DNA of 32,000 nt from Candidatus Saccharimonadota bacterium. Lineage in GTDB: Bacteria; Patescibacteriota; Gracilibacteria; Absconditabacterales; Absconditicoccaceae. The stretch spans positions 600,001 through 632,000 of the forward strand of contig OZ246420.1 in NCBI GenBank assembly GCA_965231145.1. The letters are read 5' to 3'. Shown here one piece after another: positions 4,271 through 13,702 of the stretch (positions are counted from its first letter, which is position 1; every line of letters starts with the position of its first letter). The notes under the pieces are model-generated. The model saw nothing but the letters and a program-made list of their open reading frames with translations, did not search any database and was not told the origin of the DNA. A program made the position numbers and the translations under genes.

Positions 4271-4867
4271 TTAGAAGTATCTGCGGAATGTTCCTACGAC
4301 TTTACCGACGATTTCCATGTTGTGTTCCGGGTAGATCGGAGAGAAATCTGGGTTTGCTGGTTCGAGATATTTCTTTCACTGTTTGTCCTTTGCGAAATAT
4401 TTTACGGTAAAGGTATCCGTACCGTCAACGAGAGCGACGACGATATCTCCGACTGAAGGATTTTTAAGCGCCTGGTCCACGATCACAACGTCTCCGTCCA
4501 TGATACCTGCGTCTTTCATGCTCTCACCTTTTACTTTTACGAGAAATGTCGTCTGCGGTTTCTTCACGAGAAAGCCCTGGATATTGATCTCTGCCTGCAC
4601 CTCATCAGTGGCAGCAGTAGGCATACCAGCCTGGACGTACTCGTAGAGCGGAAGCGCCCCAAGTTTATCCGTAGCGACGTAATCATCTCCAAGCTTTCTG
4701 ACATAGCCTTCCTTCTCAAGACCTTTCATGAAAAGATGGATCCCGCTTTTTGAAGCAAGCCCAAACATATCCATGAGCATACTAAATGATGGGATACTAT
4801 AGTGCTTAAAATAGTACTCTTTCAGTTTCATCAAACGCTGCTGGAACTTATCGTATATATCGTGCAT
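4271..4867 (-). CDS. lexA: LexA repressor (S24 peptidase)
   Basis: N-terminal wHTH, cleavage-site-like VQA-GMP, GESMKDAGIMDGD (Ser nucleophile) and TVKYF (Lys). Track ORF 4376-4894 extends through one TGA=Gly to TAA at 4271. Start 4867 (MHDIYDK) is preferred because the ATG at 4894 lies inside the SOS box. Confidence 0.88.
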
Positions 4868-4885
4868 GGAGAGACACATAAAGAA

Positions 4886-4903
4886 ATAGAACATCTGTTC
4901 TAT
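4886..4903. promoter_or_regulatory. SOS (LexA) box of the GAAC-N4-GTTC type
   Basis: atAGAACatctGTTCTat has perfect 7-bp inverted arms. It lies 19 nt upstream of the lexA ATG and overlaps the putative -10. A second one-mismatch site, gaccaatcgttc, lies at 4927-4938. Confidence 0.6.
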
Positions 4904-4926
4904 ATTCCTTTTTCCGACAATTACAA
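4899..4926 (-). promoter_or_regulatory. Putative lexA promoter
   Basis: Minus strand TTGTAA (4926-4921), N16, TATAGA (4904-4899). The -10 is embedded in the SOS box. Confidence 0.4.
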
Positions 4927-4955
4927 GACCAATCGTTCTATTTTATACCGTTTTC

Positions 4956-5635: not shown

Positions 5636-6328
5636 TTACTGTAAACTCATACCATATTTTTTCATCCGCGCCATAGCGTCTTTATAGCTTGGATACAGCT
5701 CCTCTACTACCGCCCAAAATCTCTTCGAATGATTCATCTCTTTCAGATGCACTAATTCGTGACAGATAACATATTCTATAATCTCTTCCGGCATCTTAAT
5801 CAATTTCCGATTTAATCATATATTCTTTTTCGATGAGCAGGTTCACCATTTGGTTTTTTGGTCTCTGATATAGAGCTTCTCATAGTGGAGTTTGTGCTTC
5901 TGAGCGAGCTGGGAGAGTTTTTTCGACAGATAGTCCTTCGCATAGGATTTGTATCGTTCTTTCTGTTTGGTCTTGTGTAACAGATCAACTCAACTATAGA
6001 TAACTTTCTCCTCGTGTTCTACGACCGTTTTCTGTTTCAAGGCGGGTTCGTATGTAAAGGCATATGCTACGCCATAGAGTAATATTTCGTTCTCCCCTAC
6101 CGGCAACTGCTCTTTTGCTTTTTTGACTCTTGCCAGCGCCTTTTCGATCCGGTCTTTTCTGTCTTTGATAAATGAATTTATATAGGCATCCGACAAACGC
6201 TTTGGAGCTGAAACTATGACCTCTCCGGATGGGAGGACACGGATGCGAAGAGATTTGATGGGTTTGCGGTGGATTGTGAGGGGCATAGAAAATTTTCTAA
6301 TTTTATCAAAAACTAATCGCTTAATCAT
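5636..6328 (-). CDS. DUF45/YgjP-like (M48-type) zinc metallopeptidase
   Basis: ..RDQKTKW[G]TCSSKKNI[G]LNRKLI..YVICHELVHLKEMNHSKRFW.. (HExxH motif). The ATG at 6328 overlaps the hsdR stop by 8 nt. Confidence 0.8.
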
Positions 6329-9158
6329 TTACAGGATTTCCCACTCCCGTAATATACGTCTCTACAAAATATAAAATCTTTTTCGTAACTCTAGACACGA
6401 TCTTAGCACGTTCAAGGAGTTTTAGCTTAAAATTTAATGCTGCTATGATATCGTCGCGCAGTGGCTTCTTTTCGGTAAAAATATAACCTTCAATAATTTT
6501 CGCCAACTTTTCAGGTATAAGTTTTTCTTCTTTACATAGTTTATCAAATGCCTCTTTCTTTTGTTCATCTCGGAAAACATAAAAAGCATCTTCTATATCA
6601 TTTGCACCATCAATTTGAGGCAAATTTTTTTCCATAAATTTTTCTATAAGCTCTCTCTTACTACGTAATGTCGTATCAGAAGCAATCGTCTTCATAATAC
6701 CTTTATACTGTTTATCTGCCTCACCTGAATTATTATTTTTCAATTGTTCTAACTTAAGTTTAGCTAATAATCTTAATATATAAGCCACGTTTACATCATC
6801 GCGATGAATTAATTCAATTTCAAAATCCACGTCATTGAGAATAGAGGCCTTTTCTTTCTTGTTAGCTAATCTTACTTTATCATAAATATCTAAATATTTG
6901 CTTTTATAATCCTCAAACCTTTGTTCATCTATCTTAAGGTCACCAAAATTGAAATCAGCAAATCATCATAATATATTTTTAAGACGAATGAGTTCACGGA
7001 ATATTTTAATAAATAAAAGTTCTTCCTCTTCGTCTTCTAAATAGCTAACGCTTTCTACCGTGGGAACGACATCTGTAAGATCCTTTAATCTTCTATTAAA
7101 TTTTTCTACATAACTTTCATATGGTTCCATCAAAACAACTTCAATGGCTTCTTTGTTTGAGAAAAGAGTAATGGCGTCATCCGTTGCTTTTTTGAGATTG
7201 CGGAAAGAAACTATATTCCCCTGAGATTTCTTTTCATTGAGGATACGATTTGTACGAGAAAATGCTTGTATGAGACCATGATATTTAAGGTTTTTATCTA
7301 CGTAGAGAGTATTGAGAGAAGGACTATCAAATCCTGTCAGAAACATATTTACCACAAGCAAAATATCAATCTTCCTCGCTTTTACCTGCTTTGCAATATC
7401 CTTATAATAATTGTAAAATGACTGAGTATCTTTTGTAGAAAAATTAGAACCAAACATGCCGTTATAATCATTAATGTATTCATCTAATTTTTCTCTGCTA
7501 TGTTTATTTACTGGTATATTATCTTCTATAGTCAATTCATCTGGCAGTAAACCATTTGCATCTGCATCTTCCTCATTTGCAGCATATGAGAAAACCGTAG
7601 CTATACGAAGATTAGTCTTTTTCTGCTTAAATATATCATAATACTTGACCAGTGAATCAACACTACCTACACAAAACATAGCAGTAAATTCTTTGCCATG
7701 GGTCTTACGCTCATGATTTGCAATGATATAATCGACTATTTTCTCTAAGCGTGCTGGAGATTCCAAGAGTTCCTTCGTATCTATGTCCTCGACCTTTATA
7801 TCTATTTCATTTCTACTTCCCTCTTTTTCTTTATATTTACCCACATATTCTATAGAAAACTTCAGGACATTTTCATCTTTAATGGCATCTGTTATCACGT
7901 ATTTGTGCAAACACTCCCCAAAGAGGTCTTTTGTGGTTTTTCCTTTACTATGATTTTCTGCTAAGATGGGCGTTCAAGTAAATCCAAACATCTGATGATT
8001 GGTAAAAAACTCTTTAATACGCCTATGCGTATCTCCAAACTGGCTACGATGACACTCATCAAAGATGAATACCACACGCTCATCTTTAATTTTTTCCATT
8101 TTTGCACCATAACGTATTTTGCTAATTGCAGTGTTGAGTTTCTGGATAGTTGTAACTACGAGTTTTGTGTCATCAGTTAATTGTTTTACCAGGGTTCTTG
8201 TATTATCAGTTCCATCAACACTTCATTTTGAAAAACTATTAAACTCTATTATCGTTTGAGAGTCTAAGTCTTTTCTATCTACCACAAAAACCACCTTAGT
8301 CACCTCTGGTATATCATCAATTATCTGACTTGCTTTAAATGAGGTAAGGGTCTTTCCCGAACCAGTAGTATGCCAGATATATCCATTATTTTTACCATTC
8401 TTAACTCTTTCTACTATCGCTTCGACAGCATAGTACTGATATGGACGAAGCACCATCAGTATCTTTGTTTCTGCCAAGACTGTATACTTTGTAATCATCT
8501 TTGAAAGATGACAAGGCTCAAGAAACTCTTTTGTAAATCTTTCCAATTGAGTAATAACTTTATTTTCTCTGTCAGCCCGGTAAAACGTCTGTTTAAATGA
8601 TTGATTTTTATTGTTTGCATAGTACTTGGTATTTACACCGTTACTTATCACAAAAATCTGGATATACTGAAAAAGACCATATGAACTATCATATGAGTGT
8701 TTTTGATAGCGATTGGTCTGATTGAATGCTTCTTTAAGCTCTAACCCTCTCCTCTTCAGTTCTACTTGAACAAGAGGCAATCCATTAATAAGAATGGTTA
8801 CATCATAACGATTTTTATACTTTCCTTCTTGGGTTACTTGATTTGTAACCTGGTACTCGTTTTGACACCAATTCTTCTGGTTGATAAACTCAAGGTAGAT
8901 GCTCGTTCCATCTTCCTTTGTAAGTTGCATCTTATCTCTCAGTATTTTTGCCTTCTCAAAGACATTTCCTTTACTCAGATGATTGAGCACCATAGAAAAC
9001 TCCTTCTCTGTCAGCTTTACCTTATTGTGAACTTCTAGCTGTATTTTCAGGTTTGCCAAAAGTTCGGCTTCATCGCGTATAGTGATACGTGTGTATCATA
9101 GTGTTTCGAGCTGCTTGAGGAGTTCCTTTTCGAGGATAAGTTCGGATTGAGTGGTCAT
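6321..9158 (-). CDS. hsdR: Type I restriction enzyme, R subunit (945 aa)
   Basis: [20 protein letters not shown][G]YT.., [34 protein letters not shown][G]TPI, and C-terminal ..LKNIL[GG]FADFNFG... Track ORFs 6321-6830, 6966-7910 and 8223-9059 are one frame. Confidence 0.95.
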
Positions 9159-9163
9159 ATTAC

Positions 9164-9967
9164 TTACTTTTCATAATGTAAATTCTTTAAGTCTTTAACA
9201 TTATCTTCCGAAGCAATAATTAAATACAAAGATTCAGCTATTCATTTTTTTATAACCCCAGGAGCTCATCAATATGTAATAATTTTAGGGTTATAAGCAC
9301 GAGGATCTTTTACACAAACTATTCATATACAATACGGAATATGATCTGGTGTTTGTAATATTTGTAAAGGAATCTTTCAATATTTAGGATAAATTTTATA
9401 AGAATTATTTAAAATATTTTTGTTTTTGAGAATATGAAATCATTCTACAACATAATTATACTTATTATTCTTCTTTGACAAGTCTATAATTAAGCCTTTT
9501 TGAATTAACATATAGTTTTTACTCAATTGTTTCTCATCAAACAAGCTTATAGTAGGTAAATCCTTCAATATCTCAATTCATATATTAAATATGAAGATTG
9601 GACCTCAATCATTTGTAGATGATAAAAGATTATAAGACTCAATACTTAATCATTTTGCTTTATTAGCTTCGTCAAATCATGATAAAATTCAATATCATGA
9701 GATTTGTGCCTTTCATGATATATGATGTGATATCTTAGGTTTAAAAACTTCGATTTTGTATGTATGTTTATCATCTCTTTTCACATTACATGTTTCTTCA
9801 CGTCACATATTCATTGGTATTCAAATCTTTGTAGCAATATATTTATGATCTCTATCTAACACATCATTAATATAGTATGATCAATCTGATAGATATCAAA
9901 TATTAAATAATCTATAAGTATTATTTTTATGATTCAAACATATCCTATAACATAAATTGTTCTTCAT
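9164..9967 (-). CDS. Orphan protein (267 aa) encoded between hsdS and hsdR
   Basis: 268 codons in very AT-rich DNA with no TAA/TAG and about 20 TGA=Gly. The gap to the hsdS stop is 11 nt and the gap to the hsdR ATG is 5 nt. No domain recognised and no P-loop. It is absent from the ORF track. Confidence 0.6.
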
Positions 9968-9978
9968 CTTATTCTATG

Positions 9979-11142
9979 TTAAATAAACATCTTCTGCAAC
10001 AAACCTTTCTTCCAAACTTTCATCTTCTCTATTTGCTCCTCTACTTTTTCTATTTTCTTATCAAGAGCAGAAAGGGAATTTGCTATCTTTTGTTGCTCAA
10101 TTATAGAAATAGGGTATGGGATGCTTTGCTCTGTCACTGTTCACTTTGAGAGACCGATTTGAGCCGTTCAGTTAGCTTTTTTTCTAAATGACATATTAAT
10201 TTCATAACTATTAATTACAAAGAACAGATATTTTATATCAATACTGATATTAGTTAGTTGATATACATGATCTCAGCAAATATATTTATTATTTTCTGGG
10301 ATTTGTACTACTTTCCCTATAATATTTCCTCATCCAATATCATCCTTTGCCATTACAAGATTAGATATAGATAATATATCACCATCAAAGTTTGTCTTCT
10401 TATTAGGAATCAATCTATAATTACTGCCTATAGCTCACATATCAACGATCACATATTTACCTGTATCTTCTATATACTTACTTTTTGATCAACATGAAAT
10501 CACATCACATATTTTTCATAACTTTGTTCTTTTTCGCTCAGAAAACCCTTTCCCCTTCTCATCCCTAAAACGGATTTTCTGACTAAAAATTAGCTGTATA
10601 ACTCACTTTTTATATCTTTCTAATTGTTCTTTTTTCTGAGAAAGTTGTTGGATTTTCTGTTCAACTATGGAAAAGAATTTGGCTATTTTCTTCTGTTCAT
10701 TACTATCTGGCATATGAATAGACAAGCTCTTTAACTGTCAACCCGTTATTAGAGGTTGTCCTGATCAAAAAACTAGCCTATTTAAAACATTTTTTATAAG
10801 AACTATATATATGTAATCTATATTTACATCCTTTTTAAGCCTTAATATAAGGGCATTATCAGATACTCAATATTGTCATTCAACTTTATAAATAAATCAT
10901 GCATTAGCTCATACTCTCGCGATTAATATATTTTTTCATTCATATTCAAAAGATTTTGACAATCCTAAAACACCTGTTGAGCCATAAATATAATATTTTC
11001 CACTTTCATTTGATTGAGTTCATGATCTACCAGATGATATCGATTCAGCGACTGCTTCGAGCCTTATTTTTTGCCATTGTCAATTAAACCCAGGAAAACG
11101 AAGTGTAGGAATAATGTTTTCTGCCTTTACCGCCTTACTCAT
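9979..11142 (-). CDS. hsdS: Type I R-M specificity subunit (387 aa, two TRDs)
   Basis: [20 protein letters not shown][G]QW.., ..VF[G]SGQPLIT[G]GQL.., central [21 protein letters not shown][G][12 protein letters not shown], ..AN[G]TAQIGLSK[G]TV.., C-terminal [30 protein letters not shown]. About 17 in-frame TGA. No ORF appears in the track. Confidence 0.92.
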
Positions 11143-11257: not shown

Positions 11258-11785
11258 TTATGTTAAATGTTTCTTTTGATAGCTTATCTTGTCTTGGGCG
11301 TTTTTTAAATAGTAATAATAAGTATTTCCCAATTTATTATACAGTGACGAATGATTAGCATTTGGAAATATAATCTTTTCAAAAACTCATTTCTTAATAA
11401 GGTAATCTACTACTTTCTTATAGTCACCATCTCATGAAACTAAGACCATCTTATTCCATGTACCCTTTGGATCATCTATCAGCTTCTTCATCATAGAAAA
11501 TACTATATCTACATCTACGTTGCCTTTTTTCTTCCCCTTAAGCGCTGAGGTATGTTCCCTAAATGACATGATAAATCATGCTTTTTGTATGTTATCATAT
11601 AAGTCTTGCTCACTTTCATCAACACATCCCAAAAAATAATATGCCTCCTCTATCTGGAATTTATCCTTTAGAAAGATTCTAAATTTTTTGAAATCTATCG
11701 CTCGTCATTCTGACTTTATTCATAGATGTAAATTCTGACCATCTATAAAAGCAATATTATATAATTTGGGAGTTTGTTGAGACAT
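11258..11785 (-). CDS. NYN/LabA-like (PIN-fold) ribonuclease domain protein (175 aa)
   Basis: ..LYNIAFIDGQNLHL[G]IK.., ..KGNVDVDIVFSMM.., ..MVLVS[G]DGDYKKVVDYLIKK[G].. match the NYN acidic motifs. 176 codons open with 6 TGA=Gly. Confidence 0.75.
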
Positions 11786-11801
11786 GTGATGAGAGTTTAT
11801 A

Positions 11802-12149
11802 TTAAATAGGTAATATTCCTAATTTAGTTAGAACCCATAGAATTAACCAACTCACGACAACGAGTATTAAGTACAAGCAAAAATATATGATCGACCTTTG
11901 GGTCGGGCCTTTTACTGTATGTTTGTCGCTTATAATACCTACTATTATATAGCAAATAAGCCATAAAATGGTATAAATAGAAATAATTTGTCCAAATATC
12001 CATTCAATCGTTTTATTTGCAAAAATTGGAAATTGTTCTATTGTCATATAACAAATCCATATGCGTATTATAAAACTCAAACGACTAATTATTGGATACA
12101 TATTAATAATGTTAGTAAGCTTTTTATTTAAAATGGACTTTCTATTCAT
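11802..12149 (-). CDS. Small membrane protein (115 aa, about 3 TM)
   Basis: Track ORF. Hydrophobic helices: LSFIIRIWICY, IISIYTILWLICYIIVGII, IIYFCLYLILVVVSWLILWVL. The ATG overlaps the recoded hsdM 3' end by 22 nt. An alternative start is at 12101. Confidence 0.5.
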   Translation of the reverse strand: MNRKSILNKKLTNIINMYPIISRLSFIIRIWICYMTIEQFPIFANKTIEWIFGQIISIYTILWLICYIIVGIISDKHTVKGPTQRSIIYFCLYLILVVVSWLILWVLTKLGILPI

Positions 12150-13702
12150 AATTCTTTACAAAAATCTGTAATTTTATGATCAATTTCTACTATTTGTTTT
12201 TCAATATCTTTGATCTGTTTTGCTACCTCATTTACATCAATCTCCTCTTCATCTTCAAACGTATCCACATAACGAGGAATATTTAAATTATATTCATTTT
12301 CTTTCACTTCATCGAGCGTTGCGATATGGCTATATTTATCTGTTTCTTTTCTTTCTCTATAAGTAGAAATGATCTTCTCAATATCCGCATCCCTCAGCTT
12401 ATTTTGATTTTTGACTTTCTCAAAATGCTGACTTGCATCTATAAATAAGATATTATCGGTATGAGTACGGCACTTTTTAAACACTAAGATACATGTCGGG
12501 ATACTCGTCCCGTAGAAGATATTAGCCGGAAGTCAAATAACAGCATCTAGATAGTTTTTTTCTTTTATAAGGTATTCGCGGATATGTCATTCTGCTCCTC
12601 CGCGAAACAAGACGCCATGAGGCATAACAACCGCCATCGTTCCATTGTCCGCTAAGTGATAGATCATATGCTGTATAAATGCATAGTCTGCTTTGCTACT
12701 TGGAGCAAGTCTACCATACTGAGAAAACCTCTCATCACTCAGGTGAAGTTGATTCGCGCTTCGCTCAGCAGAGAAAGGCGGATTAGCTACGATAGCTTCA
12801 AACCTTTCATGCATGTGCTGAGGATGCTCAAGGGTATCTTCTTGTTGGATACTAAACTTACTATAATGTACTCCATGAAGGATCATGTTCATACGAGCAA
12901 GGTTATATGTTGTATTATTAAGTTCTTGTCCATAAAATTTTCCAACTTCTTTTACCTCTTTCGCCACACGTAAAAGCAACGATCCTGAACCGCAGGTAGG
13001 ATCATAAGCCGACTTAAGTTTTGTCTTTCAGGTAGTAACAAGCTTTGCAAGCACTTTAGACACTTCTTGCGGCGTATAAAACTCCCCCGCTTTCTTCCCT
13101 GCTCCACTGGCGAATTGCCCTATAAGATATTCATATGCATCACCCAGCACATCTATTTGTGCATTCTCCAACTGAAAGTCTATCTTATCAAGATAAGACA
13201 GTACTTTTGCAATGATTGTATTTTTTTCTTTTTCTGTTTTCCCAAGTTTTTGAGAAGTCAAATCAAGATCAGAGAAGAGATTACTAAAATCATCCTCGCT
13301 ATCCGTTCACATGGTACTATGTTCTATGCTATTAAGAATTTTCTGCAGATCTCCGATGATGAAATTATCTTCTTTTTCTGACTTAGCATTTCCTCTCTCA
13401 GCTACCACATGAAAAAGCTCAGAAGGCTTGAGGAAATATCCGAGACTATCTAACGCCTCTTCTTTTATAGCCTTAAGCATATCTTTGCCTTTCTTAGAAC
13501 TTTCATCAATATCTTCATATGCCATATTGCCATCATTTTCCAATATTTTATTTGCATACAGATACATTTTCTCCGAAAGATACTTGTAGAAAATGAATCC
13601 TAAAATATAGTCACGGAACTCATCAGCATCCATCCTTCCACGCAAAGTATCAGCAATATTCCATAGTTGAGTTTGTAGTTGTTTTTTCTGTTCTTCAGAC
13701 AT
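12128..13702 (-). CDS. hsdM: Type I R-M N6-adenine DNA methyltransferase subunit (524 aa)
   Basis: MSEEQKKQLQTQLWNIADTLRG.., ..GDAYEYLIGQFA..AGEFYTP.., YDPTCGSGSLL, VANPPF, ..FRGGAE[G]HIREYLI..AVI[G]LPANIF. Four track ORFs share one frame. The TGA at 12146 is read through to TAA at 12128. Confidence 0.95.

Follow-up and report, generated by a model that had tools for sequence, protein, structure and literature searches.

The window, by which we mean the whole stretch of 32,000 nucleotides that was analysed, contains an intact Type I restriction-modification (R-M) operon on the minus strand (Table 1). hsdM is its first gene, and it is followed by a hydrophobic ORF, an NYN-domain gene, hsdS, the gene under study (the target), hsdR, and a gene for a YgjP-like metallopeptidase, which appears to close the R-M cluster as its last gene. 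The NYN gene and the hydrophobic ORF form a second insertion, located between hsdM and hsdS. A gene for a LexA-like S24 peptidase lies about 0.7 kb beyond the cluster. hsdS, the target, and hsdR are all on one strand, and the spacing is as the first-pass annotation had stated, with 11 nt between the hsdS stop codon (9979-9981) and the target ATG and 5 nt between the target stop codon and the hsdR ATG (9158). A terminator scan found no terminator-like sites between hsdS and hsdR on the operon strand, and the promoter and terminator scans over the locus gave matches at chance level. Co-transcription is plausible because the genes are tightly packed on the same strand, and it is reasonable to infer that the target is transcribed together with hsdS and hsdR.

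Table 1. Features of the R-M locus in the window and of loci that encode relatives of the target. X, family member.
Feature	Sequence	Position	Strand	Description
LexA-like S24 peptidase gene	window	4271-4942	-	Pfam; identical Logan contig
YgjP-like metallopeptidase gene	window	5636-6328	-	Pfam 2.9e-51; overlaps hsdR stop by 8 nt
hsdR	window	6321-9158	-	945 aa; Pfam HSDR_N, ResIII, T1R_D3-like, EcoR124_C
Target gene	window	9164-9967	-	ATG (9967) to TAA (9164); 267 aa + stop; 24.3% GC
Most conserved core of target, residues 77-123	window	9599-9739	-	PK-IS-HH-ISG-KAQ-ISG-YG-ILSG ... KG-LSIES ... NDGGP
hsdS	window	9979-11142	-	387 aa, two TRDs; Pfam Methylase_S 7.5e-32, 2 stretches
NYN-domain (LabA-like nuclease) gene	window	11258-11785	-	Pfam NYN 1.9e-15; PADLOC NYN 2e-06
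Second insertion (NYN gene and hydrophobic ORF)	window	11258-12149	-	
Hydrophobic ORF	window	11802-12149	-	115 aa; 22-nt overlap with hsdM end; putative coding; no family match
hsdM	window	12128-13702	-	524 aa; Pfam N6_Mtase 4e-115, HsdM_N 2e-17
Diverged paralogue	L058	3022-3954		Family HMM, E 6e-31; directly upstream of X, downstream of KAP NTPase
321-328 aa protein	L069	8933-9919		Adjoins X
321-328 aa protein	L071	6992-7957		Adjoins X
Free-standing ORF matching the helical extension	L075	560-1150		E 2.7e-06; beside a short-form X, opposite strand
LexA-methylase fusion	L079	561-2006		Single ORF: LexA DNA-binding + S24 peptidase + N6_N4 DNA methylase; adjoins endonuclease VII gene and X

If only TAA and TAG count as stop codons, the target frame is open over 269 codons. 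In 2000 shuffles of local DNA of 24-27% GC, the longest open stretch had a mean of 75 codons and a maximum of 158, and each of the remaining five frames over the target contains 11-28 TAA or TAG codons. The long frame free of TAA and TAG that had been claimed earlier was thus found as described, with 267 codons and a TAA stop, far above the shuffle maximum. The claim of about 20 TGA codons read as glycine was right for the number of glycines (20) and too high for TGA, since the gene has 17 in-frame TGA and three GGN codons. TGA therefore encodes 85% of the glycines. There is no TGG codon, hence no tryptophan, and no internal TAA or TAG.

Long ORFs appear across the entire window only when TGA is a sense codon, and both Tgt ('FSLxTGG') and HsdR ('FGFTxTP') have TGA where a glycine is conserved. 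The code was also tested on the target itself, with an HMM of 30 members of its family (see below) that carry G at the positions matching TGA. The target scored 209.9 bits when TGA was translated as Gly, 168 bits as Ala, 154.7 bits as X, and 149.7 bits as Trp. Ten of the 17 TGA sites are in Gly-majority columns of the alignment, two of which are invariant Gly, and none of the 17 is in a Trp-majority column. In the conserved core, the TGA sites at residues 85, 91, 93, 97, 106, and 121 match Gly columns. The target is a genuine gene, its host bacterium translates TGA as glycine, and the best explanation of its product is a functional, cytoplasmic protein of roughly 30 kDa.

A decayed second hsdS TRD or an N-terminal fragment of hsdR, both raised in the first-pass annotation, or a chance ORF would be the readings in which the frame is not a gene. 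Random ORFs are somewhat longer in AT-rich, TGA-recoded DNA; otherwise, no support for such an origin was found. The target frame is well beyond the shuffle maximum, and there was no Methylase_S or HSDR_N signal in the target, even at E<=1. As a TRD remnant it failed to match Pfam PF01420 at that threshold, although the true hsdS alongside gave 7.5e-32. As an hsdR fragment it had no HSDR_N or ResIII match, and the neighbouring hsdR is complete with all domains. Moreover, the target aligns over its full length to a family that is found far from R-M genes, and its invariant residues are intact. These readings are refuted, and the chance that we leave to them is practically nil.

The target is the most AT-rich gene of the window and has the highest TGA share. 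TGA accounts for 13% of the Gly codons in hsdR and 19% in hsdM (34-36% GC) versus 85% in the target (24% GC). This difference, together with the Bacteroidota affinity of HsdR described below, may be a sign that the R-M core crossed a genetic-code boundary when it was acquired, and that the target is cargo from within the lineages that use code 25. However, the share of TGA follows AT content throughout the window, and thus it does not prove an import of the R-M core.

A word-indexed homologue search with the target returned a single protein (P0001, 94% identity). P0001 is the target gene itself from a Logan assembly, translated in code 4 with 17 Trp for Gly. We then have a very different picture from an exhaustive phmmer search, in which the Trp version of the target was compared with 1.84 billion representatives. 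This search brought up 47 other clusters, of which 22 reached E<=1e-10, and the best E was 1.7e-39. The target is therefore not the orphan that it was called at first, and many of these clusters have no TGA-derived Trp. The closest matches are 35-40% identical and carry Trp at family Gly positions, so their source genomes are recoded, and about 30 further family clusters have ordinary Gly at these positions. Organism names, two where given, were 'Patescibacteria group bacterium' and 'Candidatus Gracilibacteria bacterium'. With hmmsearch, the target matched the family HMM at E 4.1e-63 (about 210 bits), with residues 4-268 covered. A profile of 35 sequences in the word-indexed search found 3 proteins only. 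In JGI metagenomes, a degenerate DNA pattern in which Gly positions may be TGA matched 12 loci, 11 of which are true members. A protein of 5271 aa with 11 repeats (P0033) did not match the family HMM and was rejected as a composition artefact.

The mistranslation in code 4 costs the target about 60 bits of profile score. Because of this replacement of Gly by Trp, the word-indexed search missed the whole family and the target seemed to be an orphan. The suggestion that recoding hides the gene was correct, since its sole database copy is the code-4 translation. In public collections the code-25 members (P0001-P0012, P0027, P0038, and P0046) are present only as code-4 versions, with one Trp per TGA. 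This is a practical problem.

No match to the target was found in Pfam, PADLOC, NCBIfam, PHROGs, or PDB sequences; the only PDB-sequence matches were to AT-rich Plasmodium eS7 and were discarded as a composition effect. Nor did family members match Pfam at a meaningful level (n=35) or any of 5027 PADLOC models (n=30). The A3 family profile gave only LRR noise against PDB sequences, and this was on the C-terminal extension described below. IMG/VR contained no members in a search with an 8-sequence subset and none by the degenerate DNA pattern, and the INPHARED phages and PLSDB plasmids likewise yielded none. The absence of a recognisable domain, noted at first sight, thus held in Pfam, PADLOC, NCBIfam, and PHROGs, and the possibility that homologs would reveal a known housekeeping protein did not apply, as no known family was matched. 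Judged by sequence similarity, the target belongs to a small, previously undescribed family with both code-25 and standard-code members. So far the family appears to be confined to CPR/Patescibacteria, including a code-25 Gracilibacteria-type lineage.

Members of the family share a core signature, PK[IL][ST]HH-x2-G-x2-[HQ][IV]SG-x-G-x2-SG ... KG ... S ... NDGGP, which is also present in the target, and in the family alignment it reads PK[IL][ST]HH-x-D/S-G-x-A-[HQ]-[IV]-SG-x-G-[IV]-x-SG ... KG ... S ... NDGGP-x-F-x-F. Across 35 sequences, K78, H82, S90, K105, and P123 never vary, and P77, H81, S96, S111, and D120 show at least 90% conservation. The target keeps all ten of these residues. At residue 178 it has His, where at least 90% of the members have Tyr. 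The invariant polar residues, which would sit on Gly-rich loops, suggest an enzyme or a small-ligand-binding site, and from their conservation we propose the core as a candidate catalytic or ligand-binding site. Lys78, His81/His82, Ser90, Ser96, Lys105, Ser111, and Asp120 would cluster in this putative active or ligand site.

The structure prediction and Foldseek comparison proposed in the first-pass annotation gave a confident model of a relative and no structural relative in PDB or BFVD. The model was made with AlphaFold2 for P0014, a standard-code protein that is the closest relative of the target with Gly at the TGA-matching positions. From a 30-sequence alignment it had a mean pLDDT of 88.8 and a pTM of 0.87, with 16 strands and two short helices. 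In a second model, of P0017 (513 aa), the N-domain was recovered with a pLDDT above 90 and was followed by a helical C-terminal domain (residues 269-440). The target is assigned the family fold because it matches the profile over its full length, and thus it is predicted to be almost all-beta, as in the P0014 model and the N-domain of P0017. Foldseek found no match at E<=1e-3 among 350,542 PDB chains and BFVD. The best TM-score was at most 0.26, with high rmsd and low probabilities throughout, and matches to GFP, beta-clamp, and lectin folds were low-probability noise. An internal duplication of the fold was considered and dropped, as hhalign detected no similarity between the N and C halves. 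The predicted fold of the family has no relative in PDB or BFVD and is unlike any solved structure.

In four members (P0017, P0035, P0036, and P0037) a helical extension of about 230 aa follows at the C terminus; it has a pLDDT of 80-95 and no relative in Pfam or PDB. A free-standing ORF that matches this extension was found next to a short-form member in another locus (L075, Table 1).

We collected 17 independent genomic contexts of family members, many of them on short contigs. About 12 of the 17, a raw count from a small sample, are of a defence or mobile type. Overall, the defence-type neighbours include R-M, Abi, HEPN, Mrr, KAP or PDC-S01 ATPases, toxin-antitoxin genes, and recombinases. 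Besides the target locus, whose Type I R-M operon makes it a defence-type context, there is one more locus with hsdR (L060), in which the order is hsdS-hsdR-DUF4357-membrane protein-X-serine recombinase (X, family member) and the member is three genes downstream of hsdR. The member follows RadC-Dcm-RE_HpaII-Vsr-ImmA-DUF4411 in L069, and it is found in the order DUF5677-HEPN_AbiV-...-X-Mrr_cat in L078. Abi_2 adjoins the member in L076, a code-25 genome. In other loci the member comes after an AAA_14 ATPase (L055; PADLOC PDC-S01, 3.5e-29), after a RecD/PDC-S68-like helicase (L072), or after a KAP NTPase and a paralogue (L058). Serine recombinases are near the member in L071 and L063, a ParB-methylase gene is found with it in L077, and a LexA-methylase fusion and endonuclease VII are found with it in L079. 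The remaining five contexts (L057, L065, L067, L068, and L074) are of a housekeeping type.

Three side observations were made in these loci. The paralogue in L058 is diverged and in tandem with the member. In L079 the LexA DNA-binding, S24 peptidase, and methylase parts are encoded by a single ORF. Furthermore, a protein of 321-328 aa adjoins the member in two unrelated loci, L069 and L071. It has no Pfam match and carries a C-terminal motif DDHDxHFHVIH, and its copies in the two loci share 36% identity (E 8e-60). One subgroup of the family may have this gene as a partner; a protein of this type is absent from the window.

The neighbourhoods are suggestive of the pattern of a defence-island gene. 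A high density of defence systems has been reported for CPR genomes (PMC12259885), and therefore the association of the family with defence is only suggestive. Examining the gene neighbourhoods of homologs, as had been advised, thus showed mostly defence- or mobile-type contexts and no conservation of the slot between hsdS and hsdR. hsdR is present in only two of the 17 contexts, with different gene orders, and since the slot is not conserved, a specific link to the R-M enzyme is unsupported beyond the target locus and L060.

In a scan of genome contigs, the closest relatives of HsdR were from Bacteroidota (62-65% aa identity). The 53 loci with the nearest relatives of HsdR all lack a family member, and among the seven of them that were inspected the slot before hsdR differs in content. 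By our own reading of the sequences, it would contain nothing, an uncharacterised ORF of 324 aa, several unidentified ORFs, or a nucleotidyltransferase-type pair. Because the 53 loci have no member and the slot is variable, the target is lineage-specific cargo. The best explanation is that it is outside the ancestral Type I R-M operon and is a restriction-linked ORF in a variable slot upstream of hsdR.

Because the family recurs in defence islands and beside recombinases, we propose an accessory anti-phage or abortive-infection-type role. In this proposal the target would be an enzyme-like accessory defence effector, brought in as restriction-linked cargo from a new family, and we consider this about an even chance. 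It would have been inserted upstream of hsdR and be transcribed with hsdS and hsdR. The effector may act independently or alongside neighbouring systems, and it is unlikely to be a dedicated R-M subunit.

The main rival to this proposal is a CPR-specific enzyme or binding protein outside defence, whose gene would lie in variable regions only because these accept insertions. Roles in episymbiotic life or in nucleotide or cell-surface metabolism can be given as examples. The five housekeeping-type neighbourhoods, the 30 members that no PADLOC model matched, and the lack of copies in IMG/VR, INPHARED phages, and PLSDB plasmids are consistent with such a role. However, the family is rare and patchily distributed, with 47 clusters in 1.84 billion representatives, its genes are repeatedly adjacent to R-M, Abi, HEPN, Mrr, toxin-antitoxin, and recombinase genes, and there is a tandem paralogue in L058, all of which argue against such a role. 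We regard a role outside defence as possible but doubtful. The lack of members in these viral and plasmid collections argues against a mobile-element or prophage origin, in which a gene for anti-defence, superinfection exclusion, or addiction would have landed in the R-M operon. For a mobile origin one can cite the serine recombinases near the members in L060, L063, and L071, the ParB-methylase gene of L077, the LexA-methylase fusion and endonuclease VII of L079, and the target's own composition, with the lowest GC (24.3%) and the highest TGA share in the window. Yet no flanking integrase or repeat was found in the window, and the gene is cleanly spliced between hsdS and hsdR. We consider this origin very unlikely.

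A guard function has also to be considered, in which the Type I enzyme would hold the target latent and an anti-restriction attack by a phage would release it as a suicide effector. The target is in the same slot as prrC (hsdS-X-hsdR) in a tightly packed operon, the member in L060 is three genes downstream of hsdR, and PrrC and EcoprrI provide a precedent for the logic (PMC2610378), though the target protein is unrelated. Against this, the target has no homology to PrrC (ABC ATPase, Walker A, R-x3-E...H triad, PADLOC, or Pfam), hsdR is rare among the contexts and in another gene order, and at least five members are among housekeeping genes. Guarding by analogy with PrrC is thus unlikely, and as the slot is not conserved it is unlikely as a property of the whole family. 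A bolder version is that the target is the founding member of a new CPR-specific family of single-protein anti-phage effectors, a backup that fires once the Type I enzyme is disabled. This seems rather improbable to us. If it were true, the guard logic of PrrC would have been reinvented with an unrelated all-beta enzyme whose fold has not been seen in solved structures.

CPR bacteria represent a large share of bacterial diversity. They are described as seldom carrying CRISPR-Cas, and their phage resistance as an open question (PMC6509639). According to a recent survey, apparent gaps in the CPR defence repertoire may reflect unknown systems (PMC12259885). The accessory effector proposed here comes from a family that is a concrete candidate, since it is small, its standard-code members can be expressed directly, and its invariant residues are clear.

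Among known systems, the family resembles the PADLOC PDC-S and Abi proteins in that its members are stand-alone proteins of about 270-300 aa that are patchy, sometimes in tandem, and beside defence genes. In contrast to these proteins, it has no PADLOC, Pfam, or PHROG match and no fold relative in PDB or BFVD, and it is only a candidate. PrrC is the anticodon nuclease of the E. coli prr locus (hsdM-hsdS-prrC-hsdR). It consists of an N-terminal ABC-ATPase (Walker A, ABC signature, and Walker B) and a C-terminal ACNase triad, Arg-x3-Glu-x(36-52)-His, and the linked Type I enzyme keeps it silent (PMC2610378). As with PrrC and RloC, the target is a non-R-M gene that shares its strand with a Type I operon and separates hsdS from hsdR, and by analogy with PrrC a second-line defence role is plausible for it too. 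The remark in the first-pass annotation that the target occupies the PrrC position therefore holds for the slot and for none of the PrrC protein features that were examined. A pattern search ([AG]xxxxGK[ST]) found no Walker A motif, in agreement with the same annotation. Pfam at E<=1 gave neither an ATPase nor an AAA family, and there was no ACNase triad (R...E.{30,55}H) and no PADLOC match. Unlike PrrC, the target is predicted to be all-beta and is only 267 aa long, compared with about 396 aa, and it has no sequence or profile similarity to PrrC. Thus, the target was rejected as a PrrC or RloC, with which it shares linkage by position only.

The term rlo refers to restriction-linked ORFs, from the Type I loci of Campylobacter jejuni (PMC2610378). 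Similar to rlo genes and other cargo of defence islands, the target is a variable, lineage-specific gene inside a Type I R-M locus; its family differs in that it is undescribed among rlo genes or in PADLOC and appears to be restricted to CPR. What is new here is the family, which is undescribed, seems to be restricted to CPR, and has a confidently modelled fold with no relative in PDB or BFVD; what is known is the class of restriction-linked ORFs. The resemblance of the target to PrrC is only positional, and the target fits this known, wider class.
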